The translations under genes were made by a program, and so were the position numbers. From the IMG/VR virus record IMGVR_UViG_2695420576_000002, positions 1-12,124 of that record: a stretch of DNA of 12,124 bases, one strand, 5' to 3'. Of this stretch, positions 1 to 12,124 are shown piece by piece. Source of the stretch: a virus. Taxonomy: Duplodnaviria; Heunggongvirae; Uroviricota; Caudoviricetes. Position 1 is the stretch's first letter, and the number at the start of each line of letters is the position of its first letter. The notes beneath the pieces are model-generated. The model was not told the origin of the DNA. It worked only from the letters and a program-made list of their open reading frames with translations, and did not search any database.

Positions 1-558
1 GTGCCAACGTTGGCACATTTGGGAAAAGCCAAACTTTTCGAATTAATGACAGAAGACGACGAAGAGCTTGCCGAACTGGCCGACGGCGGCACAGTTGCCG
101 GCCTGACGCTTGACGACGTTGATCGCATGTCAGTACGTGAATTGCGTCAGGCCCTGCGCGAAGCGCGCGAAACCAACGCAGCACAACAGCGCGTACTCGC
201 TGACAAAAATGAAAAAATAGACTCACTCTCCACCAGACTGGAGAAGAAATCCCGTATTCAGCCGCCTGAGCCTGATGAAGAGGTTAAGAAGCTGCGGGCG
301 GAAGTGACAGCATTAGCGGTTGAGGCGGAATCTGCTATCGCCGTTCGACTGTCCAGCGCTTTTGAGACGCTGTGCGCATATTGTGCTGAAAACATGATTG
401 ATACCCCCAGAGACTTCATGGCAGGCCTGGTCTGTCAACTGGAAAGCACAGCGCGTAGCCTGCGCTCCACATTTGACCTGCCGGATGAGCCAACAGGCAA
501 TGCCGCGCCTTCATGGCTGACTGAGCCGACGCCACAGATTAACGGGCTGGAGGCATAA
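1..558 (+). CDS. hypothetical phage early protein, 5' partial (reading frame open to the window edge)
   Basis: ORF runs from base 1 to TAA at 556-558. The transposase ATG follows 4 bp later with GGAGG at 548-552, so it is co-oriented with the transposase operon. Acidic N-terminal part and coiled-coil-like middle; no family recognised. True start is probably upstream of the window. Confidence 0.5.
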   Translation: MPTLAHLGKAKLFELMTEDDEELAELADGGTVAGLTLDDVDRMSVRELRQALREARETNAAQQRVLADKNEKIDSLSTRLEKKSRIQPPEPDEEVKKLRAEVTALAVEAESAIAVRLSSAFETLCAYCAENMIDTPRDFMAGLVCQLESTARSLRSTFDLPDEPTGNAAPSWLTEPTPQINGLEA

Positions 559-561
559 CCA

Positions 562-2331
562 ATGAATGCTGCCCTGACTGAACGACTGGTTTATGTCGCC
601 CGCGCGGCACGTGACGCGGGGCATGGTAAACGCGGTGCAATATACGACGCTGCCTGTGCTGAACTTGGCATGTCCCGCGCCACTCTGCTGCGCAGGCTGA
701 AGGAGGTCTCTGTGACTGATAAACGCAAAAAACGCGCTGATGCCGGACGCAGCGCCCTGACCCGCGACGAAGCCGCGCTGATATCTGCCACACTGCGTGA
801 GGCCACCCGCAAGAACGGTAAGCGTCTCTATTCCATCGCGGATGCAGTGGAAACCCTGCGGGCTAACGGCTTTATCTCCGCAGGCAGAACAGATGAAACC
901 ACCGGTGAGTTTTTCCCGTTGTCCGAAGATGCCATCAGTCGTGCCCTGCGTAACTATGGCCTGCACCCGGAACAACTGGATGCTCCTGCGCCGCATACCG
1001 AAGTGGCCAGTCTGCATCCCAATCATGTCTGGCAGATTGATGCCTCGCTCTGCACGCTTTACTACCTGAGCAATGGACACAAAGGGCTGCAGGTGATGGA
1101 CAGCGCGAAGTTCTACAAGAACAAACCCGCTAACCTTGCCCGTATCGCCAGTGACCGCGTGTGGAGTTACGAGATTACCGACCATGCCAGCGGCTGGATT
1201 TACGTTGAGTATGTGACGGGTGCGGAATCCGGTGAGAACCTGTGTTCTGTGCTTATCAACGCCATGCAGGAGCGTGGCGGCGCAGACGTGCTGCACGGCG
1301 TGCCAAAAATACTCTATCTCGACCCCGGTTCGGCAAACACCGCGGGTATGACGAAAAACATGTGCCGCTCACTGGGCATTGACCTGATAGCGCACAAGCC
1401 GCATAACGCCCGCGCCACCGGACAGGTGGAAAAGGCGCGTGACATTATCGAACGCAAGCTGGAGCCGGGTCTGAAGTTCCGGCCGGTTCACAGTCTGGAA
1501 GAACTCAACGCGCTGGCCGCGAAATGGCGCAGCCACTTTAACGCCACGGCTGTTCACAGCCGCCACGGTAAAACCCGCACGGATATCTGGCTGAAGATTA
1601 CTGCTGAGCAGCTGAAAAAAGCGCCTTCCGTTGAGGTATGTCGTGAACTGGCTGTGGCGGCACCAGAACTCCGCAAAGTCACGCCAAAACTTCGTGTCTC
1701 GTTCCGGGGCACTGAATTTGACGTATCAACGGTACCGGGCGTACTGGTTGGTGAAAAACTGATGATTACCCGTAACCCATGGCGCAGCGATGTGGCACAG
1801 GTGGTTCTGACCGGTGAGGACGGCCACGAGACGTTCTTCCTGGTCGAAGAGGTCAGAAAGAACGAGTTTGGCTTTGCTGAAGGCGCGGCGGTATTTGGCG
1901 AAAGTTACAAAGCCCTGCCGGAAACCCCGGCACAGATGGCGGCAAAAGAAACCGAAGCGCTGGTTACCGGTACAGACAACGCCGCAGATGCAGCCGCCGC
2001 ACGCAAGGCGAAGGCGCTGCCGTTCGGCGGGCGGCTTGACCCGTATAAACATATCGACGACACCACACTTCCGGCCTATATGCCGAAGCGTGGTCAGGCC
2101 TCTGACGTACGCGGGCCGCGCACTGAACAACGTCCCATGACTCATGTGGAGGCCGCGAAAGCCCTGCGCGATAAGTTCAGCGCCGACGGCCTTACCTGGA
2201 CGCCGGAACATTACCGCCAGTTAACGGCACAGTACCCGGACGGCGTACCGGAAGCCGCACTGGATGAAGTCATGGCCACGCTGACCACACCGGCCCGCAG
2301 CAGTGTTATCAGCATTGTTAACGGCAACTGA
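562..2331 (+). CDS. DDE transposase, Mu A-like (retroviral-integrase superfamily), 589 aa
   Basis: ATG at 562 with GGAGG 10 nt upstream. Candidate catalytic triad D160 (HVWQIDAS), D254 (LYLDPGS), E290 (TGQVEKA), giving the classic 35-36 residue D-to-E spacing. N-terminal region looks HTH-like. Shorter than MuA (663 aa) and unlike the MuA sequence as recalled. Confidence 0.85.
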   Translation: MNAALTERLVYVARAARDAGHGKRGAIYDAACAELGMSRATLLRRLKEVSVTDKRKKRADAGRSALTRDEAALISATLREATRKNGKRLYSIADAVETLRANGFISAGRTDETTGEFFPLSEDAISRALRNYGLHPEQLDAPAPHTEVASLHPNHVWQIDASLCTLYYLSNGHKGLQVMDSAKFYKNKPANLARIASDRVWSYEITDHASGWIYVEYVTGAESGENLCSVLINAMQERGGADVLHGVPKILYLDPGSANTAGMTKNMCRSLGIDLIAHKPHNARATGQVEKARDIIERKLEPGLKFRPVHSLEELNALAAKWRSHFNATAVHSRHGKTRTDIWLKITAEQLKKAPSVEVCRELAVAAPELRKVTPKLRVSFRGTEFDVSTVPGVLVGEKLMITRNPWRSDVAQVVLTGEDGHETFFLVEEVRKNEFGFAEGAAVFGESYKALPETPAQMAAKETEALVTGTDNAADAAAARKAKALPFGGRLDPYKHIDDTTLPAYMPKRGQASDVRGPRTEQRPMTHVEAAKALRDKFSADGLTWTPEHYRQLTAQYPDGVPEAALDEVMATLTTPARSSVISIVNGN

Positions 2332-2341
2332 GGAGGGAAAC

Positions 2342-3508
2342 ATGCTGGTACTGAAGCAGCAACTGAAAGAGGCCCGTATTCCACAGGCGGTGGTGGCGAG
2401 AGCTGTCGATGTTTCTGAGGCCACGCTGGCCCAGATTGTGAATCATAACGCGTGGCCCCGCACCAGCCCCGGAGAAGTGCGCCGGCGTCTTGCGTCCTGG
2501 CTGGAAAGTCAGGGGATTGATACAACGAAGAGTTTTGATGCTGTACAGGGCGCGGCCACGCCCCGTACAGCGGGTACCACAGATAAAACGAGCCTCAGTG
2601 AGGAAGAGAATATGTTACTCAAAAAACAGGTGTTATTTCCAGCAACCAAAAAAGCGTTTGGTCTTTTCCGTGACCCGTTCGCCGACGAAGCCATGCAGGG
2701 TTCTGATGATGTGTTCACCACCCCGGATATTCGCTACGTGCGTGAGGCGTTGTACCAGACAGCCCGTCATGGTGGGTTTATGGCCGTCATCGGTGAGTCC
2801 GGTGCGGGTAAATCCACGCTGCGCCGCGACCTGACTGAACGTATCAACCGCGAGAATGCGCCGGTAATTGTTATCGAGCCATACATCATCGCTATGGAAG
2901 ACAACGATGTGAAAGGGAAAACCCTGAAGGCAGCAGCGATTGCCGAAGCCATTATCAGTACCATCGCACCACTGGAAAGCATCAGACGCAGTCAGGACGC
3001 CCGCTTTCGCCAGTTGCATCGCGTCCTGAAAGACAGCAGCCAGGCGGGGTTCAGCCACGTTCTGGTGATTGAGGAGGCCCACAGTCTGCCCATTCCGACA
3101 CTGAAACACCTCAAACGCTTTTTTGAGCTGGAGTCCGGTTTCAAAAAACTGCTGTCCATCGTGCTGATTGGCCAGCCGGAACTGGCGACAAAACTGTCTG
3201 AACGCAATATGGAAGTCCGTGAAGTCGTTCAGCGCTGTGAGGTGGTCGAACTTCTGCCTCTGGACAATAACCTTGAAGAGTTTCTGACGTTCAAACTGCA
3301 ACGGGCCGGTAAACAACTGACGGACATTATGGACGCCAGCGCAGTGGATGCCATACGTGCCCGCCTGAGCAATCCGGGAAGTCATCGTAAAAATATGGTC
3401 AGCCTGCTGTATCCGCTGGCCGTCAGTAACCTGGTAATAGCCGCCATGAATCTGGCCGCTGAAATCGGGGTTCCACAGGTCAACGCTGACGTTGTCAAAG
3501 GGGTTTAA
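2342..3508 (+). CDS. transposition target-DNA activator ATPase, Mu B-like AAA+ protein, 388 aa
   Basis: Start chosen at ATG 2342 (AGGAGGG at 2331-2337) rather than the ORF-track start at 2303. Walker A GESGAGKST and Walker B-like VLVIEEAH. N-terminal HTH-like segment. Sits directly after the transposase, as B does in Mu. Confidence 0.8.
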   Translation: MLVLKQQLKEARIPQAVVARAVDVSEATLAQIVNHNAWPRTSPGEVRRRLASWLESQGIDTTKSFDAVQGAATPRTAGTTDKTSLSEEENMLLKKQVLFPATKKAFGLFRDPFADEAMQGSDDVFTTPDIRYVREALYQTARHGGFMAVIGESGAGKSTLRRDLTERINRENAPVIVIEPYIIAMEDNDVKGKTLKAAAIAEAIISTIAPLESIRRSQDARFRQLHRVLKDSSQAGFSHVLVIEEAHSLPIPTLKHLKRFFELESGFKKLLSIVLIGQPELATKLSERNMEVREVVQRCEVVELLPLDNNLEEFLTFKLQRAGKQLTDIMDASAVDAIRARLSNPGSHRKNMVSLLYPLAVSNLVIAAMNLAAEIGVPQVNADVVKGV

Positions 3509-3510
3509 TA

Positions 3511-3780
3511 ATGAAATCCACCACAGGTATCAACCAGCAAATCAGCAAAGTGCAGTCAGCCATTATGGCGCTTAAGGCGACGAACACGGATGTACAAAGC
3601 ATCACCATCAGGGGTAACAAACCTGTCATCCGCGTTTCCCGGAGTGCGCATTGCATGCGCATGCTTGAGCAGGGAAAGGCCTGTTATCTGTATACCGGTC
3701 ATGACCACAGGGGACATTTCCGTCAGGGCGTTTTCGAACTGCACGGCTGTCGCGTCGTGTGGCCGGAATCTTTGTGGTAA
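3511..3780 (+). CDS. hypothetical small protein (89 aa)
   Basis: ORF starts 3 bp after the B stop, same strand, within the operon. No recognisable motifs. Confidence 0.45.
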   Translation: MKSTTGINQQISKVQSAIMALKATNTDVQSITIRGNKPVIRVSRSAHCMRMLEQGKACYLYTGHDHRGHFRQGVFELHGCRVVWPESLW

Positions 3781-3807
3781 TCAGCACAACAGGAGGAGTC
3801 ATAAAAT

Positions 3808-4338
3808 ATGGCAAAAAGTACAAAAGGGGCAAAACGTATCAAAGCCGCAGCAGCACTCTGGGTGCCGGGGACACGCGAAGAGGTCATTGAGGGAATCAGA
3901 CTGCTTGGTGACGCGCAACGTGAACTGGTCAGGGCTGAAACAGAAATGAATGACACCATTGGCGACATCACTGCACGTTATGCCCCGCTCACCGAGAGCC
4001 TGAAAAAACGCATGGCCGAACTGCAGTCCGGTATCCAGACATGGTGTGAGGCGCACCGTGATGAACTGACCGGCAACGGGAAGGTGAAGTTCGCTAACCT
4101 CACCACCGGCGAGGTGCAGTGGCGAAACCGTCCGCCGTCAGTCAGCATTCGCGGGGCGGATAATGTCATTGAACTGCTGAGACGTCTGGGGCTTGAGCGC
4201 TTTATTCGTGTAAAGGAGGAAATAAATAAAGATGCCATTCTGAATGAAAAAGAGGCTGTGAAAAATATTCCCGGTATTACCATAAAAAGTGATATTGAGG
4301 ATTTTTCAATAATTCCTTTTGAGCAGGATGTGCAGTAA
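3808..4338 (+). CDS. gam: Gam-like host-nuclease inhibitor / DNA-end-binding protein
   Basis: 176 aa. AGGAGG at 3791-3796. The translation closely resembles Mu Gam as recalled, including the C-terminal IEDFSIIPFEQ segment and internal segments such as ETEMND, RPPSVSIRG and RFIR.KEEINK. Confidence 0.85.
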   Translation: MAKSTKGAKRIKAAAALWVPGTREEVIEGIRLLGDAQRELVRAETEMNDTIGDITARYAPLTESLKKRMAELQSGIQTWCEAHRDELTGNGKVKFANLTTGEVQWRNRPPSVSIRGADNVIELLRRLGLERFIRVKEEINKDAILNEKEAVKNIPGITIKSDIEDFSIIPFEQDVQ

Positions 4339-4380
4339 ACACACCACGTTAATTATTTAATAAAAACATTTTCTTTTTTA

Positions 4381-4417
4381 TTCCGGCGTCAGCGCCGCGG
4401 GCTTCTGCACGCCGGAA
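4381..4417. repeat. perfect 9-bp inverted repeat TTCCGGCGT / ACGCCGGAA around a 19-nt GC-rich spacer
   Basis: Read directly from the gam to zinc-ribbon intergenic region. Preceded by a T-rich stretch, followed by the RBS and ATG at 4436. No U-tract after the stem, so it is not a classic intrinsic terminator. Confidence 0.6.
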
Positions 4418-4435
4418 ACAGAGGAGAATTAAATT

Positions 4436-4630
4436 ATGATATTTAAATGTATTCAGTGCGAGAGGGATATAACAGCCCTGCGTTTTCACAGCGCCATCGC
4501 CGTGATGTCCGGTAAGTATCACATACCTGCAGTACGTGTCACCCTGGTCTGCCCGTACTGCAGCCAGCATTTTTCGGCGGACGTGCCCGTCATGGAATTC
4601 TCCCGCCCTGACAGGGAGGACGCGCAATGA
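4436..4630 (+). CDS. zinc-ribbon protein (CxxC...CxxC), 64 aa; possibly an Ogr/Delta-like or Com-like regulator
   Basis: C5/C8 and C39/C42 pairs. N-terminus MIFKCIQC resembles the Ogr/Delta start MFHCPLC as recalled. RBS AGGAG lies upstream of the ATG at 4436. Confidence 0.5.
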   Translation: MIFKCIQCERDITALRFHSAIAVMSGKYHIPAVRVTLVCPYCSQHFSADVPVMEFSRPDREDAQ

Positions 4631-4899
4631 TTACCCCACAGGAAGCACGACAGCGCACCCGAACTCTTGTTGAACACTATGTCAACGAGTGTGAATGCCG
4701 CGACCTCACCGATGTGAAGCACGTCCTGACGGCGCTAATCAGCATGGCCACACAGGCCATTGTGGCGACCAACGGAAAGGAGGCTGCCCTGCAGGTACTG
4801 ATGAACACACTCACCCACACGGCAGAGCATGAGGTGCCGTACCGGATGGAAACCACTGCAGAAGGCGGCCTGCACATCACCGTCAGCCGGAAGCACTGA
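4627..4899 (+). CDS. hypothetical protein (90 aa)
   Basis: ATGA start/stop overlap with the upstream ORF at 4627-4630, suggesting translational coupling. RBS AGGGAGGA upstream. No family recognised. Confidence 0.45.
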   Translation: MITPQEARQRTRTLVEHYVNECECRDLTDVKHVLTALISMATQAIVATNGKEAALQVLMNTLTHTAEHEVPYRMETTAEGGLHITVSRKH

Positions 4900-4908
4900 G
4901 GGCGCGGC

Positions 4909-5205
4909 ATGACACGAAACACCGAACTCACCCGCACCGCCCTCTACCGTCTGGCCCTGCAGCGTTTCGGGCCGGACGCACAGGCCCTGAAACTGGCAGA
5001 AGAGGCCGCTGAACTGGCGGCCAGTGCCGCCCGCAACCTGAACGGACAGGGCAGCGAAAGTGACCTCGCGGCAGAGCTGGCAGACGTGGAAATCATGACA
5101 GAGCAACTGCGCCTTCAGGGGATGGACCGGCTGATTGACTTCCACAAACAGAAAAAACTGGAACGTCTGGCTGCACGACTGGGCGTGATTTACACGAACG
5201 AGTAA
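4909..5205 (+). CDS. MazG-like nucleotide pyrophosphohydrolase family protein (tentative), 98 aa
   Basis: About 100 aa and helical. Acidic motifs LAEEAAELA and ELADVEIM are spaced like the EExxE and ExxD metal-binding motifs of small MazG-type NTP pyrophosphatases. Assigned from motifs only. Confidence 0.45.
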   Translation: MTRNTELTRTALYRLALQRFGPDAQALKLAEEAAELAASAARNLNGQGSESDLAAELADVEIMTEQLRLQGMDRLIDFHKQKKLERLAARLGVIYTNE

Positions 5206-5219
5206 CCGGGAGGCATTCA

Positions 5220-5435
5220 ATGGCTGACATACTCAGGGAAATCACCGCATGGACACTGATTCTTACTGGCCTGGCGACATGCCTCAGTGCGGGGGCAGCC
5301 CTGGCTGCCCTGCTGATGCACATAACAACACAGTGGTTATGGGAAAAGCTTAAAGCAGCATACAGCCTGAAAGAGCTGTCCGACGCTGTCCGGGCATGGA
5401 AACGGCAGAAAAATACCGGAGATACAGAACAATGA
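5220..5435 (+). CDS. small membrane protein (71 aa, one predicted transmembrane helix)
   Basis: Hydrophobic segment WTLILTGLATCLSAGAALAALLM followed by a charged C-terminus. RBS GGGAGG upstream. Confidence 0.4.
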   Translation: MADILREITAWTLILTGLATCLSAGAALAALLMHITTQWLWEKLKAAYSLKELSDAVRAWKRQKNTGDTEQ

Positions 5436-6115
5436 CAGACCAGAATAAACACATTGAGAAACTGAAAAAGTTGCTGGCGCTGGCCGCATCCGGCAACCCG
5501 CACGAGGCCGCTCTGGCACTGCGCCGAGCCCGTAAACTGATGGATGTTCACGGCATCACACATTCCGACATTGCTATGAGTGATATTGATGAAACCATCA
5601 GTCACTACTGGCCGACAGGCAGTCTCCGTCCACCGCGCTACATGCTGGGCCTGATGAACATCATCCGCGAGGTATTTGGTGTTAACTCCATCATTCACCC
5701 CGGCACGCATCCGTCTGTGGGGTTCTACGGCAACCGGGAACGTGCGGCACTGGCTGCATACACCTGGGAAGTGCTGGCCCGTCAGCTGAAAAAGGCGCGT
5801 CAGCAGTATATCAGTGCACAGAACAAAAGAATAAAAACCGCCACCCGCACCAGCCGTGGAGACCAGTTTGCCGAAGGCTGGGTGCTGGCCGTTATCAGTG
5901 AAATACAGTCCTTTGCCCTGACCGATGATGAGCGTGAACTGATGCAGCAGTGGCTGGAACATAAATACCCGCAGACGCAAACCACCAGGGCGCGTAAACC
6001 GGGAAGAAGCCGCAATGGCGACGCCTCGCGCTATGCGGGGTTTCGTGAAGGGCAGAACGTCAGACTGCACCGCCCGGTCAGTGGGCAGGAACAACAGAAA
6101 CTGGAGGCCAGATGA
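5432..6115 (+). CDS. DUF2786-like phage protein, 227 aa
   Basis: Start chosen at ATG 5432 (ATGA overlap with the preceding stop, GGAGA upstream) rather than 5396. N-terminal IEKLKKLLALAASGNPHEAALALRRARKLM matches the conserved N-terminal signature of the DUF2786 family as recalled. Confidence 0.55.
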   Translation: MTDQNKHIEKLKKLLALAASGNPHEAALALRRARKLMDVHGITHSDIAMSDIDETISHYWPTGSLRPPRYMLGLMNIIREVFGVNSIIHPGTHPSVGFYGNRERAALAAYTWEVLARQLKKARQQYISAQNKRIKTATRTSRGDQFAEGWVLAVISEIQSFALTDDERELMQQWLEHKYPQTQTTRARKPGRSRNGDASRYAGFREGQNVRLHRPVSGQEQQKLEAR

Positions 6116-6342
6116 TTACGCTATCAGGTAAAAGCCGGAAATTAAAAGCCTGCCGAATATCTGCCAGATACCTTTTTGCCCGCGCCTTTTTTAAGAACGT
6201 CAGGCCGGGGATCACAATTGGTGTTATTGCCGGACGCGAACAGGTTGAAAAATACATGTCAGGTGCATGGTGGAATAACGACCCTGTCATTGCTGCCCGT
6301 AATATTCATATCGAATGGGGAGGTATTCAGAATGACTACTGA
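6112..6342 (+). CDS. hypothetical small basic protein (76 aa)
   Basis: ATGA overlap with the upstream stop and GGAGG at 6103-6107. However the 5' half is AT-rich and contains a palindrome and T-runs, so part may be regulatory rather than coding. Confidence 0.3.
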   Translation: MITLSGKSRKLKACRISARYLFARAFFKNVRPGITIGVIAGREQVEKYMSGAWWNNDPVIAARNIHIEWGGIQNDY

Positions 6343-6538
6343 AACCATTGTCTGTTTTCTTTTCTGGTATATGTACGCAGGATCATGCAGCGCAAGACTT
6401 CATCGTTCCCTGGGCTATGGCAGGCACTACGACACCGCGCATTACATCCTGTACATGACCGCCGTCATGTTGTTCTGGCCAGTCACCCTGCCAGCTGCAA
6501 CCGACATTGTTGCCGACAGACTGAAAAAAAGGAGATGA
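6331..6538 (+). CDS. small membrane protein (69 aa, two hydrophobic segments)
   Basis: ATG at 6331 with GGGGAGG at 6316-6322. Hydrophobic stretches IVCFLFWYMYAG and ILYMTAVMLFWPVTL. Confidence 0.4.
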
Positions 6539-6539
6539 T

Positions 6540-6989
6540 ATGCAGAAAAAACGCCTGATACAGCTTATCCATATTGCCCGTAATGAACTGGGTATGGATG
6601 AAGACACCTACCGCCAGATGTTACAGGGGCTGACCGGTAAAGCCTCAACCAAAGGAATGGATACCACACAACTAAACTGCGTGCTGGAATCCATGAAAAA
6701 GAAAGGCTTTCGCGTTAAACCAGCCAGAAAAGCCAGCTCCGGTTTACCGCTTGATAACCATCCGCAGTCCAGGAAAATTCGTGCGCTATGGCTTGAAATG
6801 GCTGCTGCCGGCATTGTTCGTGACCGTTCAGAAAATGCATTAGCGAGGTGGATCAAGCGGGAAACGGGCATCAGCGCCCTGCGCTGGCTCAGTACTGAAC
6901 AGGCAAGCAGTGTTATTGAGAAACTGAAGAAGTGGCAGCGCAGAGCTGCGGGAGTCAAACATGAGCGACCTGAATCAGTTTCGAAGTAA
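6540..6989 (+). CDS. gemA: GemA/gp16-like regulatory protein (DUF1018 family)
   Basis: 149 aa. The translation matches the gp16 family pattern as recalled (LIQLIHIA...L.GLTGK.S...M...QL..VLE.MK..GF). GGAG upstream of ATG 6540. Sits immediately before the mor-like gene, as in Mu. Confidence 0.7.
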   Translation: MQKKRLIQLIHIARNELGMDEDTYRQMLQGLTGKASTKGMDTTQLNCVLESMKKKGFRVKPARKASSGLPLDNHPQSRKIRALWLEMAAAGIVRDRSENALARWIKRETGISALRWLSTEQASSVIEKLKKWQRRAAGVKHERPESVSK

Positions 6990-7350
6990 GGGGCCGGAAC
7001 TCCTGGTGGAACTGGCACAGCATACCTCTGAGACCGTTCGCGAGATTATTGATATTGAGCCCGAAGTTGCCGACCAGATTGGTCAGGCCGTCGCGAACCG
7101 AATGATGCAGGTCTGGGGCGGGCAAAACGTTTATTTCCCGATGGGCATGGTATGGAAGGTCAGTCAGCGCGACCGGGAAATCTTCAGGGAGTTTAACGGA
7201 CGCAACCACCACGAACTGGCCCGCAAATTTGGTGTTTCGCTTCAGTGGGTCTACAGCGTGGTTAAGCGGGTAAGAAAAGAAGAACTGGATCGGATGCAGG
7301 GCAAGCTATTTGCTGATGAACCCGATGCAGATACGGAGAAAAAAGAGTAA
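6961..7350 (+). CDS. mor: Mor-like middle-operon transcriptional activator
   Basis: 129 aa, the same length as Mu Mor. C-terminal HTH region FNGRNHHELARKFGVSLQWVYSVVKR resembles the Mor/C family. Last gene of the early operon. Overlaps the gemA 3' end by 29 bp. Confidence 0.8.
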   Translation: MSDLNQFRSKGPELLVELAQHTSETVREIIDIEPEVADQIGQAVANRMMQVWGGQNVYFPMGMVWKVSQRDREIFREFNGRNHHELARKFGVSLQWVYSVVKRVRKEELDRMQGKLFADEPDADTEKKE

Positions 7351-7511
<161 letters not shown>

Positions 7512-7673
7512 CAAATACGGCAATCCCGACGATGGGGATCAGCGCCAGCACGGTAGCAACGGCCTGTACGCGGGTGATCATTTTCGGACCGACAATGTTC
7601 AGCAGGACGAAGATCCACAGCACCACGACGCAGGTGATGGTTAATACCAATGGATCTTTCAGAATCGGGAAGA

Positions 7674-7734
7674 AGTAACTTAAATATCTAACTTAAATAT
7701 CCTACGCCAAAGTAACTTAAATATCCTACGCCAA
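7674..7734. repeat. nested direct duplication within adiC: 22-bp unit TAACTTAAATATCCTACGCCAA at 7689-7710 and 7713-7734, plus a 13-bp partial copy at 7676-7688 (net +37 bp)
   Basis: Read directly from the sequence. Relative to the expected single copy encoding IGVGYLSYF, the extra 37 bp shifts the frame and creates a TAG stop (translation ...[15 protein letters not shown]). Confidence 0.8.
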
Positions 7735-7735
7735 T

Positions 7736-7777
7736 GACCACCATGGCGATATTGCCGACCACCATGGCGATATTGCC
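7736..7777. repeat. perfect 21-bp tandem duplication GACCACCATGGCGATATTGCC x2 within adiC (in-frame repeat of GNIAMVV)
   Basis: Read directly from the sequence. The - strand translation shows [13 protein letters not shown] where native AdiC, as recalled, has a single NIAMVV. Confidence 0.85.
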
Positions 7778-8074
7778 GATCCAGCAGGCCAGCCAGTAGA
7801 GGACGTTGGTTTGATAACCGAGAAACGGGCCAAAGCAGCGGCGGGCGTAAGCGTAAGAACCACCAGGACTTGGGTCGAGGAACGACATTTTGGCGTATAC
7901 CATCGAGAGCCCCAGCGCACCGATAATCGTCACCAACCATCCATAAATAGCAATCCCGCCAGTGGAGGCCAGGTTTGCAGGTAACAGAAAAACACCTGAC
8001 CCCATAATATTCCCCGACACCATCAGGGTGACGGGGATTAAGCCCACTTTGTGAGCATCAGCATCCGAAGACAT

Positions 8075-8210
8075 AATTAAACTCCTGCGAAGGCGAGCTT
8101 CGTGACAATAAATTACGTCATATCATACGCCTGCATTCGATAGTTGAATTATTATCGGCCGGGTTATCGCTGATGCCGTTATTAATATAGCTCTTCGTTA
8201 AGGTTAAAAA
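8075..8210 (-). promoter_or_regulatory. adiC upstream region (promoter and 5' UTR, with a small hairpin CGAAGCTCGCCTTCG just upstream of the RBS)
   Basis: Intergenic region between the adiY stop and adiC start. Assigned by position only; no -10/-35 elements were confidently identified. Confidence 0.3.
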
Positions 8211-8972
8211 TCAGGCGACAGTGCGTTCTCTGTGCTGACTAACATAATGCAGCGGCGTCATACCGTAGAAGTCTTTAAAGACAGAAATAAAGTACGACGT
8301 ACTGTTGTAGCCGCAGGACTGTGATACCTGAGAGATATTTTTACCGTCCATCATTAATTCATTTACGGCATAACGCATGCGGCAGGTGGTGATTATTTGG
8401 CTATAACTGGTGTTTTCGCTTTTCAGCTTTTTCTTTAACAGACTTGGGCTAAGACATAAACAACTGGCTACCATACTAAGATTCCAGTCTTTGTGGATAT
8501 CGCTTTCAATAATTTGATAAACGCTGTCACTTACACAATTACGTAACATATACATCATTAGTGAAAGGAATTTTTTACTGTCGAGAAAACGGGATAGCAC
8601 AGTGAATAATAATGCACGTGTTCGTTCCTTTTCTGACTCAGTTTCAGCGGGCATCATGCTATGCTGCGCGGCAACGCGAAAGACGTCTGGCGTCAGGCAT
8701 GGAAGGGTGAGGATGGGCGTAGCGCTACGTTGCCATACTGGTATTTGCGAGAGATCTTTATTCAGAAACCGGAGGTAATCTTTGATGATGTCGTGACTAA
8801 TATGAGCAACCAAAGTGTTATTAAGAGAGGAGACGTCGATAATATTATTTTCACAATTTAATAACGCCATGTGGTTAGCTTTAAGGCTAATAGGTTCTTT
8901 CCCATTCACCCTTATCCAGACATCTTTTTCAGTCAATAAAACAATACAAGGTTGGTCGCTGCAAATCCTCAT
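8211..8972 (-). CDS. adiY: AraC-family transcriptional regulator AdiY
   Basis: 253-aa translation matches E. coli AdiY as recalled. Conserved synteny adiC-adiY-adiA-melR. Confidence 0.9.
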   Translation of the reverse strand: MRICSDQPCIVLLTEKDVWIRVNGKEPISLKANHMALLNCENNIIDVSSLNNTLVAHISHDIIKDYLRFLNKDLSQIPVWQRSATPILTLPCLTPDVFRVAAQHSMMPAETESEKERTRALLFTVLSRFLDSKKFLSLMMYMLRNCVSDSVYQIIESDIHKDWNLSMVASCLCLSPSLLKKKLKSENTSYSQIITTCRMRYAVNELMMDGKNISQVSQSCGYNSTSYFISVFKDFYGMTPLHYVSQHRERTVA

Positions 8973-9163
8973 ACATGTACTCCTGAGTGCGAATAAAAGA
9001 CCAGTTCTCGCTAAAGCGAAGCGATACCGGGAAATGGTTATATAATTGTATGATGAATATAAACATGCATAAAAATAACGAGTTTTACTAATATTACAAA
9101 TTTTTATAGTAATTTCTCATGTACATATTTTTTTACAGGCTAAAAAAAGGATAAATAACAGGC
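8973..9163 (-). promoter_or_regulatory. AT-rich adiY upstream region (putative promoter)
   Basis: Strongly AT-rich stretch at about 9000-9160 between the adiA terminator and the adiY start. Assigned by position only. Confidence 0.3.
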
Positions 9164-9190
9164 AAAAAAAAGCGCGGGGTGGGACCGCGC
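9164..9190 (-). terminator. rho-independent terminator downstream of adiA
   Basis: On the - strand: 6-bp stem GCGCGG, 7-nt loop UCCCACC, stem CCGCGC, then U8. Lies about 120 bp downstream of the adiA stop. Confidence 0.6.
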
Positions 9191-9307
9191 AAAAAGCATG
9201 ACATTTTTTGTTTGCAGCAATTTTTATGAAAACGTTGCCATACTTAAAAGGCCTCAAGCCAGGCGGCGTAATGTTATTTAACAATTACGCCTTCAGCGGA
9301 ATAGTGG

Positions 9308-11578
9308 TTACGCTTTCACACACATAACGTGGTAAATACCGTCAATAATTTCTGTCCCTTCTGTTTCGTGTTCAAATCCAGGGAAATGATGGTCCCAGGA
9401 TTGCAGCGAGCGTAAATAACTTACTTGCGGACTGTTTTTATCGCCGAAGTTTTCACCAGACAGCAGCATCGGGATTCCTGGCGGATACGGGATAACTGAG
9501 TTTGCCGCGATACGTCCTGGCAGATTTTCAATGGATACCAGTTCGACATTGTTGTCGACAATCGCGTTGTACGCTTCACGCGGGGTGATTTCCGCCACCG
9601 GTAGGCCGGAATAGGCTTCATTCAACCGTGCGCCAGGGTTGTTTTCTTTCAGCCAGGCAAACATGGTGTCACCCAGATCGTGAATCCCCATGTTCGCGTA
9701 AGTGTCAGGATATTGTTCAACAAGTTCCGGCATCACCTGCGCCAGCGGTGTGTTGGCATCATAGTGGCGTTTGAAGGAGCAAAGGGTGTTAACCAGAGTC
9801 CCCCATTTCCCACGGGTCACGCCCATAGAGAACAGGAACATAATCTGGAAGTCAGTGGTACGGGTAGGCACAATGCCGTGGCGACCAAGCCAGGCTGTGA
9901 CCAGCGCCGCCGGAACACCGGTTTCTTCCAGTTCACCATCTTCACCCATTCCCGGAGCAAGGATGCTGACTTTAATCGGGTCGAGCATACTCCAGTTATC
10001 CGGAATATCTTTGAAGCCGTGCCAGCTTTCGCCCGGATGCATGACCCAGCAGTCCTGAACGGTGGTCAGCAGTTTGGTTGGTGCGTCAGCAAAGTCATAG
10101 GTTTTGCCGGTTTGTGGGTCGGTGACGACTTCTTTGTTCCACGGTTTGAAGAACCAGCTACCGTCAGCGGTGAACTCTTTATATAGCCGCGCCATCGCCT
10201 GACGGAAATCAACCGCTTCGTCGATCACTTCCTGGGTCAGTGACAGGCCGCTGTTGCCGTCCATCATCGACACCGCCACGTCGTTGGATGCGCAGATGGC
10301 ATACAGCGGGGAGGTGGTGGCATGCATCATGTAGGCCTGGTTGAAGCGGGAGAAGTTAATCGCCCCACGACCTTCACGTACATGAATATAAGAGGCCTGT
10401 GACAGCGCATTCAGCAGTTTGTGGGTGGAGTGGGTGGCGAAAACGGTAGGACCGTTGTGATCGCCAGGTTCGCCGCGCATGGCATAGTGATCGGCATAGA
10501 TCGGGTTGAAACGTGCATAGCCGTACCAGGCTTCGTCAAAGTGCAGACGATCGGAGGTTTTTTCCAGCAGATCCTGTGCTTCTTTAGCGTTATAACACAC
10601 GCCGTCATAGGTGCAGTTGGTCACCACGCAGTAAGACGGTTTTTGCCCGGCTTTGTCTTTGGTCAGCGGGCTTTCATTGATTTTCTTCTGCAAGGTTTCA
10701 GGTTGCATTTCCTGCGGATAGATTGGCCCGATAATGCCGTAGCGGTTGCGGCTTGGCACCATGTAGACCGGTTTCGCGCCTGTCAGCATCAAGCCTTGTT
10801 CGATGGATTTATGGCAGTTACGGTCAACGACCACTACATCGTTATCGGTCATGCAAGCCTGCATGATGGTGCGGTTAGAGCCGGAAGTACCGACGACTAC
10901 CGACCAGGAGCGATCGGCACCAAATACGCGTGCGGCATATCTTTCGCTTTCGCCAAATGCGCCAGTATGGTCAAGCAAAGAACCGAGGGAAGTGCGTTCG
11001 ATACCCATGTCGGTGCGGAACAGATTTTCACCATAATAGTCATGGTAGAAACGTCCGGCGGGTGTTTTGGTAAAACCAACGCCGCCCTGGTGGCCTGGCG
11101 CTGCCCAGGAATATTCATGGATGTCGCTATATTTCATCAGCGCGCTGAACAGTGGCGGCAATAGCTGCTGGCGGTAGCGGGTCATCGCGGCAACGGCGCG
11201 TCCGGCGATAAAGTCGGCGGTATCTTCCAGAATCCAGGCGAATTCATCGACAAGCTCCAGCAGATCCCGGTCCATTGCGGCGAGGGCTTTTTCCCGATCG
11301 CCCAACAGGAAGACCGGCACGTTTTGTTGGCGCTCATGAAGCTTACCGATCAATTGTCTGACGTTTTGATGTTCGTCCGGATGTTCCATTTGATAGCTGA
11401 ACATCAGGCAGTCAATGGCTTCGTTTGAAGAGAGAATGGCAAAACCATCATCAAAGGAGGTGGATTTAATCACGGTAACATTTTGCTGGCTTAAAGCATC
11501 TGCCAGACGCTCAACGGCGTTACCGACCCAGGTGTCTTGATGGAGAAACTCGCTTTCAACAATTAATACTTTCATCAT
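9308..11578 (-). CDS. adiA: biodegradative (acid-inducible) arginine decarboxylase AdiA
   Basis: Full-length translation matches E. coli AdiA as recalled (MKVLIVESEFLHQDTWVGNAVERLADAL... ending ...IDGIYHVMCVKA). The ORF has tandem ATG codons, so the true start may be 11575 rather than 11578. Confidence 0.93.
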   Translation of the reverse strand: MMKVLIVESEFLHQDTWVGNAVERLADALSQQNVTVIKSTSFDDGFAILSSNEAIDCLMFSYQMEHPDEHQNVRQLIGKLHERQQNVPVFLLGDREKALAAMDRDLLELVDEFAWILEDTADFIAGRAVAAMTRYRQQLLPPLFSALMKYSDIHEYSWAAPGHQGGVGFTKTPAGRFYHDYYGENLFRTDMGIERTSLGSLLDHTGAFGESERYAARVFGADRSWSVVVGTSGSNRTIMQACMTDNDVVVVDRNCHKSIEQGLMLTGAKPVYMVPSRNRYGIIGPIYPQEMQPETLQKKINESPLTKDKAGQKPSYCVVTNCTYDGVCYNAKEAQDLLEKTSDRLHFDEAWYGYARFNPIYADHYAMRGEPGDHNGPTVFATHSTHKLLNALSQASYIHVREGRGAINFSRFNQAYMMHATTSPLYAICASNDVAVSMMDGNSGLSLTQEVIDEAVDFRQAMARLYKEFTADGSWFFKPWNKEVVTDPQTGKTYDFADAPTKLLTTVQDCWVMHPGESWHGFKDIPDNWSMLDPIKVSILAPGMGEDGELEETGVPAALVTAWLGRHGIVPTRTTDFQIMFLFSMGVTRGKWGTLVNTLCSFKRHYDANTPLAQVMPELVEQYPDTYANMGIHDLGDTMFAWLKENNPGARLNEAYSGLPVAEITPREAYNAIVDNNVELVSIENLPGRIAANSVIPYPPGIPMLLSGENFGDKNSPQVSYLRSLQSWDHHFPGFEHETEGTEIIDGIYHVMCVKA

Positions 11579-11773
11579 TGCTTACCCGGTTATGAAGGAA
11601 TCTTCGTTGCGGGCAAGTATCTTCCGGCCTTTTCGGGCTGTAAAGCGCGTGAAAAACAAACATTTTTGAAATATTTATTTTTATAAACAATACGTTATGT
11701 GATTATTTTAAATTATTTTCACTGCTTATTATCGACGGCTAAACTATTTTTTTGGCTGATACTGATATCGTCT
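11579..11773 (-). promoter_or_regulatory. adiA upstream regulatory region (AT-rich, putative acid/anaerobiosis-inducible promoter)
   Basis: Intergenic region between the melR stop and adiA start, with a very AT-rich tract at about 11650-11760. Assigned by position; no specific sites identified. Confidence 0.35.
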
Positions 11774-12124
11774 TTAGCCGGGAAACGTCTGGCGGCGCTG
11801 TTGGCTAAGTTTGCGGTATTGTTGCGGCGACATGCCGACATATTTGCCGAACGTGCTGTAAAAACGGCTACTCGAACGAAAGCCTGCCGTCAGGGCAATA
11901 TCGAGAATACTTTTATCGGTATCGCTCAGTAACGCGCGAACGTGGTTGATGCGCATCGCGGTAATGTACTGTTTCATCGTCAATTGCATGACCCGCTGGA
12001 ATATCCCCATTGCATAGTTGGCGTTAAGTTTGACGTGCTCAGCCACATCGTTGATGGTCAGCGCCTGATCATAGTTTTCGGCAATAAAGCCCAGCATCTG
12101 GCTGTAATGCCGGATCAGTTAAGG
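11774..12124 (-). CDS. melR: melibiose operon regulator MelR (AraC family), 3' part; gene continues beyond the window end
   Basis: Translation ...HVKLNANYAMGIFQRVMQLTMKQYITAMRINHVRALLSDTDKSILDIALTAGFRSSSRFYSTFGKYVGMSPQQYRKLSQQRRQTFPG matches the MelR C-terminal HTH domain as recalled. Lies next to adiA as in E. coli K-12. The ORF-track M at 12097 is internal. Confidence 0.85.

Follow-up and report, generated by a model that had tools for sequence, protein, structure and literature searches.

Seven small genes between gam and gemA in a BcepMu-type prophage of Escherichia coli: a probable counterpart of the semi-essential early region of phage Mu

We examined a 12,124-nucleotide stretch of viral DNA (the window; IMG/VR record IMGVR_UViG_2695420576_000002, positions 1 to 12,124) that carries the early operon of a Mu-like transposable prophage, and specifically the segment 4339–6538 between the genes gam and gemA, where seven small open reading frames (ORFs) are located that we refer to as o1 to o7. 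This segment probably corresponds, in a BcepMu-type phage, to the semi-essential early region of Mu, forming the distal part of the early lytic operon and built as a two-layer mosaic. From comparison with related loci, the cassette consists of an old and conserved layer (o1, o3, and o5) interleaved with a young and exchangeable layer (o2, o4, o6, and o7), and the region is an ordinary, uncharacterised member of a class of phage regions already known. The seven genes fit, by analogy, the part played in Mu by its semi-essential early region, which provides helper and host-takeover functions that improve lytic growth and are not strictly required for it.

Layout and plasticity of the gam-gemA interval

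The early operon extends from the first base of the window to position ~7490, lies entirely on the + strand, and has the order A, B, kil-position gene, gam, the seven ORFs (4436–6538), gemA, and mor (Table 1). A sequence-only reading of this DNA had described seven small ORFs between gam and gemA, several with ATGA start/stop overlaps, and both observations hold; the overlaps at 4627 (o1/o2), 5432 (o4/o5), and 6112 (o5/o6) can be read directly in the sequence. In addition, o6 and o7 overlap by 11 nucleotides (nt), the o7 stop codon is 1 nt ahead of the gemA ATG at 6540, and only 9 nt and 14 nt separate o2 from o3 and o3 from o4 respectively, leaving the 97 nt between gam and o1 as the sole real spacer. 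A GGAG-type Shine-Dalgarno site is positioned 6–10 nt upstream of all seven starts, and no promoter-like or terminator-like sites were found on the + strand within 4339–6538. The common strand, the overlapping or abutting genes, and the lack of internal promoter-like or terminator-like sites together point to a repressor-controlled early transcript whose genes are translated together. Upon loss of the repressor, transcription would proceed through A, B, the kil-position gene, gam, the seven genes, gemA, and mor to the phage end, and the packed genes, each with its own ribosome-binding site, would be produced jointly at an early stage of lytic growth.

The seven ORFs have the same coordinates as the RefSeq coding sequence calls in an identical prophage copy, and each of the seven proteins has a full-length match to a PHROG family (E 1e-34 to 1e-77). 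The ratios of non-synonymous to synonymous substitution (dN/dS), pooled against allelic copies or relatives, range from 0.06 to 0.44 and are all below 1, from which we conclude that all seven are real genes under purifying selection, which is more relaxed for o2, o4, and o6. We consider it highly improbable that the seven include open frames that arose by chance, or gene remnants that are decaying in a defective prophage. Their very short lengths would fit such an explanation, as would the record of Escherichia phage PhiKM, which has a minus-strand ORF in place of o1, the disruption of the host gene adiC by the prophage, and the presence of a frameshifted neighbouring gene in a related copy; but it has to contend with dN/dS ratios below 1 over many alleles, with a full-length PHROG match and a Shine-Dalgarno site for every ORF, and with exact copies of all seven proteins that are already public, as hypothetical proteins, on at least 1000 contigs each. 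For o1 specifically it is also countered by conserved cysteine ligands, third-position bias, and a minus-strand ORF that is broken in relatives, as described below.

Comparison of related loci reveals how the interval is put together. We fetched 89 loci encoding Gam relatives (labelled here by L-numbers, e.g. L033), located the window proteins in each, and determined identity profiles in 60-nt bins. Among the 64 distinct loci with both gam and gemA, the length of the interval varies from 41 bp to ~3.4 kb, and prophages that are otherwise 95–100% identical differ by single genes that have been swapped, deleted, or inserted with sharp edges, which agrees with the earlier proposal that this is the variable part of the early operon. 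The ORFs that fill the interval in variants (127, 135, 152, 105, 189, 96, and 196 amino acids (aa), together with a lipobox protein) match no informative Pfam family and offer no functional clue. The description of the whole as an accessory cassette can be retained for o2, o4, o6, and o7, which are exchangeable, but not for o5, which is conserved and syntenic across bacterial orders, nor for o1 and o3, which are conserved across genera of the Enterobacterales. The genes o2, o4, o6, and o7 are gained, lost, or allele-swapped through recombination at gene boundaries, and probably tune host takeover in particular hosts.

The Mu gam–gemA region (gp11–gp15) has the same position in the early operon, the same strand, and the same packed small-gene layout, and the flanking Gam, GemA, and Mor proteins are homologous to those of the window. 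No characterised Mu early protein is similar to any of the seven; a tblastn comparison against Mu positions 1–11000 gave nothing better than E=0.1. The window also has a DUF2786 gene and a MazG-like gene, whereas Mu has neither, and its operon, like that of BcepMu, runs outward towards the end of the phage, whereas in Mu the late genes follow mor. BcepMu shares the architecture, its genome likewise ending in mor and gemA, shows 59% identity in B in addition to the similarities in Mor and GemA, and has a pyrophosphatase gene (gp06) in the stretch equivalent to the cassette. It differs in having DUF3164 in place of Gam as well as HU-like and SSB-like genes, and there is no tblastn match between BcepMu gp03–gp07 and any of the seven window proteins.

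The Mu-like phages of Pseudomonas consist of a core and accessory 'regions of genomic plasticity' with ORFs of 34–100 codons, which occupy fixed loci in the left (early) arm, differ between near-identical phages, and mostly have no known function (Cazares et al. 2014, PMC4378225). The exchangeable layer of the window behaves in the same core/accessory fashion. An o5 homologue is present in the Pseudomonas phages, but their variable genes are from families other than those of the window, and their anti-CRISPR locus is in the late region rather than between gam and gemA.

Table 1. Features of the early operon in the window; dN/dS ratios are given for the seven ORFs and, for comparison, gam
Feature	Position	Strand	dN/dS	Remarks
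DDE transposase	562–2331	+		
ExeA/MuB-type ATPase	ends 3508	+		
kil-position gene, 89 aa	3511–3780	+		phrog_2041, function not known; no Pfam match
gam, host-nuclease inhibitor	3808–4338	+	0.03	left boundary; Pfam Phage_Mu_Gam PF07352 E=1e-40; 61.5% identity to Mu Gam
stem-loop in gam-o1 spacer	4368–4429	+		GC-rich core 4383–4415
o1, four-Cys zinc-ribbon protein, 64 aa	4436–4630	+	0.06–0.16	phrog_3401 E=1e-40
o2, lineage-restricted, 90 aa	4627–4899	+	0.38	phrog_3691; no Pfam or PDB assignment
o3, minimal MazG-like protein (all-alpha nucleoside triphosphate (NTP) pyrophosphohydrolase superfamily), 98 aa	4909–5205	+	0.21	phrog_2245 'nucleoside triphosphate pyrophosphohydrolase' E=5.5e-34
o4, predicted single-pass membrane protein, 71 aa	5220–5435	+	0.43	one hydrophobic segment, Kyte-Doolittle 19-residue maximum 1.98; phrog_3958
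o5, basic DUF2786 + DUF7168 protein, 227 aa, isoelectric point (pI) 10.1	5432–6115	+	0.16	Pfam PF10979, PF23771; phrog_421
o6, basic, 76 aa, pI 10.2	6112–6342	+	0.41	phrog_3681; no Pfam match
o7, two hydrophobic segments, 68 aa	6332–6538	+	0.14	phrog_6436
gemA	6540–6989	+		right boundary; Pfam PF06252 E=8e-41; 44% identity to BcepMu gp02, 36% to Mu GemA
mor, final gene before prophage end	6961–7350	+		54% identity to BcepMu gp01

The conserved genes o1, o3, and o5

The families guessed from the sequence alone (a zinc ribbon, a MazG-like protein, a DUF2786 protein, and two membrane proteins) are those to which Pfam, PHROG, profile comparisons, and hydropathy also lead. Of these, o5 is a clear member of the DUF2786 plus DUF7168 family both by its two Pfam domains and by PHROG, with DUF2786 at residues 8–44 (E=4e-11, 43.0 bits against a cutoff of 23.9) and DUF7168 at residues 46–189 (E=1e-25, 90.4 bits against a cutoff of 25.5); structural relatives are present in many unrelated phages. 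In several groups, homologues with 33–38% identity are positioned between Gam, or its analogue DUF3164, and GemA. These include prophages of Burkholderiales and other beta-proteobacteria, many Ralstonia phages, the Pseudomonas phages JBD24 (Casadabanvirus) and JD18 (Beetrevirus), and Pasteurella phage AFS-2018a, and by this shared synteny o5 is the conserved backbone gene of the gam–gemA interval across several bacterial orders.

The predicted structure of o5, generated from a 37-sequence alignment, is confident (predicted local distance difference test (pLDDT) 87, predicted template-modelling score (pTM) 0.78), and combines a helical hairpin at the N-terminus with a beta-alpha-beta-beta-alpha core and long helices; its C-terminal tail, of lower confidence, contains a conserved 'PV-SGQEQ-KL' motif. 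A Foldseek search of the PDB with this model returned no significant match, with KH domains recurring weakly, and a search of BFVD returned only uncharacterised DUF2786-type proteins, from very diverse phages; sequence and profile searches of solved structures with o5 also gave no match. We considered and rejected a KH assignment for the core, as the type I KH domain, which binds single-stranded nucleic acid, has a beta-alpha-alpha-beta-beta-alpha fold with a GXXG loop, whereas o5 has no such loop and its model has only one helix between the first and second strands. The fold, together with the high pI, modestly favours nucleic-acid binding, and with the KH-like alpha/beta core of the model o5 would most likely be a nucleic-acid-binding helper of replicative transposition or of early gene expression. 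In a search of literature full text, DUF2786 was mentioned four times, each time incidentally, and DUF7168 not at all, with no function given for either.

The o3 family has 1625 representative homologues. In an alignment of 60 of them E31 never varies, and conservation reaches at least 90% at E32, E35, E56, and D59, residues that constitute the EExxE and ExxD metal-binding motifs of all-alpha NTP pyrophosphohydrolases. As in the MazG superfamily, including the phage protein Atd1, these acidic motifs are carried by a single unit of ~100 residues, and o3 is phage-encoded and would be expressed early. A profile built from the 60 sequences aligns EExxEL...EExxDV with the solved nucleotide pyrophosphohydrolase of PDB entry 5ie9 (E=0.03), and also with 2q5z, 2q73, and 2gta, and no match to solved structures was obtained with the single sequence or with an 8-sequence profile. 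The Pfam MazG model is weakly matched by 11 of the 60 homologues and not by o3 itself, and some source annotations call o3 an NTP pyrophosphatase. With scores below the Pfam thresholds, we therefore file o3 as MazG-like at the superfamily level. It is retained at 57–76% identity in Klebsiella, Dickeya-type, and Symbiopectobacterium relatives. The MazG-like gene of two relatives (L062, 8281–8793; L060, 8237–8857) has a C-terminal extension of ~70 residues without a Pfam match, as if the pyrophosphohydrolase had acquired a further domain.

Atd1, a MazG-like protein of a phage, hydrolyses ppGpp and relieves TIR-based abortive infection as well as the toxicity of TIR-STING and retron-TIR (bioRxiv 10.1101/2022.06.09.495361). 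In view of this precedent, removal of an alarmone or signal nucleotide is the most attractive guess for o3, and by this analogy is offered as a lead: o3 would most likely hydrolyse a non-canonical or signalling nucleotide, such as (p)ppGpp, and so keep the host permissive.

The product of o1, following gam, is a four-cysteine zinc ribbon. Residues C5, C8, C39, P40, and C42 are invariant in homologues with identities as low as 22%, and the two CxxC knuckles that characterise a zinc ribbon are conserved throughout, although matches to Pfam zinc fingers are weak and sub-threshold. Klebsiella, Dickeya-type, Brenneria, and Symbiopectobacterium relatives have such a homologue immediately following gam. 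Substitutions cluster at third codon positions of the + frame (30–32 vs 13–16). The PhiKM record (L002, 2450–2671, minus strand) annotates a rival ORF over o1, the frame of which is broken in relatives. The third-position bias, the broken minus-strand frame, and the invariant cysteines together identify the + strand o1 as the gene, and this sequence comparison indicates that the minus-strand call is a mis-annotation.

Upstream of o1 the limits of the cassette need to be adjusted. The sequence-only reading assigned the whole of 4339–6538 to it, and whereas the seven ORFs do extend over 4436–6538, the 97 nt at 4339–4435 are non-coding and contain a conserved stem-loop, in the lower stem of which a U-rich tract is paired with the o1 Shine-Dalgarno sequence GAGGAG at 4421–4426. 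The minimum free energy of the RNA is -29.5 kcal/mol (z=-4.35 against shuffles). The structure is retained in Klebsiella and other relatives (KP12, L060/L062, and L061), where a CG pair at the base of the stem has become UA by compensatory change, and there is no Rfam match anywhere in the window. An intrinsic terminator was considered and rejected, as no U-tract follows the hairpin on either strand, and the stem-loop may be a control point for translation or RNA processing.

The exchangeable genes and their candidate roles

The exchange of single genes is most clearly delimited at o7, which exists as two alleles that are ~40% identical to each other. DNA identity falls to 40–50% exactly over 6320–6545 and is 96–100% in the flanks, and the allele present in the window is found in 480 of the ~680 prophage copies in complete E. 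coli genomes, a split of roughly 70:30. A longer reading of o7, as a 120-aa ORF with a TTG start (6176–6538), was rejected because L047, with its replaced o6, lacks the extension and because a strong Shine-Dalgarno sequence precedes the ATG at 6332. In Brenneria and Symbiopectobacterium relatives (L006, 7678–7872; L005, 8461–8661) the o7 slot directly upstream of gemA is occupied by a lipobox protein of 60–66 aa (MIIGFVLLVSAC...), and in a further Enterobacterales relative (L061, 7622–7804) such a protein is encoded after gam.

In contrast to the allelic o7, o4 behaves as a module that is either present or absent. It is cleanly deleted (5190–5430) in L033-type relatives, is preceded in L032-type relatives by a 364-nt insertion with a 127-aa ORF, and is present in 557 of the ~680 prophage copies. 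Relatives of o2 form 41 protein clusters, nearly all from E. coli, and the N-terminal third of the gene is hypervariable, with DNA identity of 50–73% over 4621–4740 and 95–100% in the flanks. The o6 gene is limited to the Enterobacterales (43 clusters at 58–99% identity, with a strongly conserved core) and is found at 686 places in complete E. coli genomes, with gam at 678. Its AlphaFold2 model, with three helices, is poor (pLDDT 58.6). An unrelated ORF replaces o6 in relatives L047 and L052, and in the viral contig L049 the gene is split by a 1.26-kb insertion (~9424–10640) that is probably an insertion sequence (IS) element; the prophage thus tolerates loss of o6, at least when integrated.

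Anti-defence, host-shutoff, and superinfection-exclusion roles had been proposed for these genes from their location, and they stay at the level of conjecture, as no defence model is matched and no fold is informative. It is nonetheless possible, if doubtful, that the interval is an anti-defence island, in which at least one of o2, o4, o6, and o7, or o3 acting on an immune signalling nucleotide, serves as a dedicated inhibitor of a host defence system that is produced early and shields the phage while it transposes, an explanation that overlaps with the one we prefer. Its attraction is that the genes adjoin gam, a known anti-RecBCD gene, within the earliest lytic transcript, and that variation is at the level of whole genes, with presence or absence and two divergent o7 alleles in otherwise identical prophages; the o2 N-terminus diverges fast, and dN/dS is higher for o2, o4, and o6 (0.38–0.43) than for gam (0.03). 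There are also precedents in the phage MazG-like protein (bioRxiv 10.1101/2022.06.09.495361) and in the anti-CRISPR genes in plastic regions of Pseudomonas Mu-like phages (PMC4378225). Set against these, we see no sequence or fold link to known anti-defence proteins, a statement made without a dedicated scan of anti-defence hidden Markov models, and the o6 structure prediction is uninformative. PADLOC defence models gave no match at E<=0.01 to the seven proteins or the kil-position protein, and an NCBIfam scan of all seven ORFs gave no usable match. Moreover, every dN/dS ratio is well under 1, and most phages fill such regions with small ORFs regardless of any action on defence. An arms race would fit the swap of o7 alleles, the presence or absence of o4, and the variability at the o2 N-terminus, but none of the three is specific to one. 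It is accordingly a speculative suggestion, to which we attach rather low confidence, that the slot upstream of gemA is an arms-race locus with o7, o4, and the hypervariable o2 as new envelope-acting counter-defence or host-takeover effectors, and that, separately, o5 is a nucleic-acid-binding cofactor of replicative transposition.

A different function for o4 and o7, as morons that act in lysogenic conversion or superinfection exclusion, would have them expressed from the resting prophage to block incoming phages or alter the envelope. Both proteins have membrane-type hydrophobic segments, the lipobox protein found in the o7 slot of the Brenneria and Symbiopectobacterium relatives implies that this slot favours envelope-directed products, and G+C content at 4200–4600 and 6000–6600 is below that of the neighbouring genes. 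We nevertheless regard this as unlikely. Morons have their own promoter and terminator, whereas the window genes overlap or abut their neighbours in a repressor-controlled early operon, and the cassette is devoid of + strand promoter-like or terminator-like sites, such that the autonomous promoter-gene-terminator layout is not present. With expression confined to the lytic operon, exclusion by the resting prophage is improbable, and the same layout speaks against the early proposal of superinfection exclusion.

We return to the interpretation of the interval as the BcepMu-type counterpart of the Mu semi-essential region, and several observations weigh against it. Co-transcription and translational coupling are deduced from the gene layout alone, and a stable hairpin that occludes the o1 ribosome-binding site could provide for separate regulation of the distal genes. 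The assignment of o3 falls short of the Pfam gathering threshold (PRA-PH, 15.5 bits where 21.3 are required), solved structures are matched only weakly (E=0.03–0.2), and a comparison with 50,697 phage records gave no BLAST-level similarity to other phage MazG proteins. For four of the seven proteins there is no homology or fold information at all. What the analysis establishes is that the genes are real, where they stand in the operon, how they are conserved and exchanged as modules, the MazG motifs of o3, and the fold of o5; the biochemical activities and biological roles discussed here for all seven are ones that we infer.

The prophage, its insertion site, and its abundance

Escherichia phage PhiKM, of the genus Bcepmuvirus, is 98.9% identical to the prophage over 3400–7400, and the prophage is a Bcepmuvirus-type (BcepMu-type) transposable element of E. 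coli. The match to another prophage copy ends at 7490 and the match to host adiC begins at 7492; from ~7492 onwards the window is E. coli chromosome, with a broken adiC followed by adiY and adiA on the minus strand. This copy has thus transposed into adiC, which encodes the arginine/agmatine antiporter of an acid-resistance system. The junction between the prophage and adiC is present in none of 5426 complete E. coli genomes. As in BcepMu, the genome ends with mor and gemA and the early operon reads outward, so that the phage is not truncated after mor, and the prophage end at ~7490 is a normal phage end.

Three side observations concern the flanking sequences. The adiC remnant has three perfect short tandem duplications (13, 24, and 21 bp) at 7676–7779 that are not in the reference adiC, and these could have arisen as the disrupted gene decayed, or be an artefact of assembly. 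The C-terminal third of mor (7141–7350) is mosaic, with 71–78% DNA identity in relative L027, the remainder of gemA and mor being 95–100% identical. The kil-position gene is annotated as a frameshifted pseudogene in strain FDAARGOS_1267 (locus L001, 8172–8442).

The cassette (4339–6538) has 696 occurrences among the 5426 complete E. coli genomes, distributed over 629 of them (~12%). About one in eight of these genomes, many from human isolates, contains this transposable prophage, yet no role is known for six of the seven early genes considered here. Host-takeover and anti-defence proteins have been found before among the early accessory genes of temperate phages. The comparison of relatives narrows the choice for screening, with o2, o4, o6, and o7 as the exchangeable, lineage-specific genes that are worth screening, and with o5 and o3, by their conservation, more likely to serve a general step of the Mu-type lytic programme. 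A function for DUF2786/DUF7168 would annotate a family that is spread over very diverse phages.

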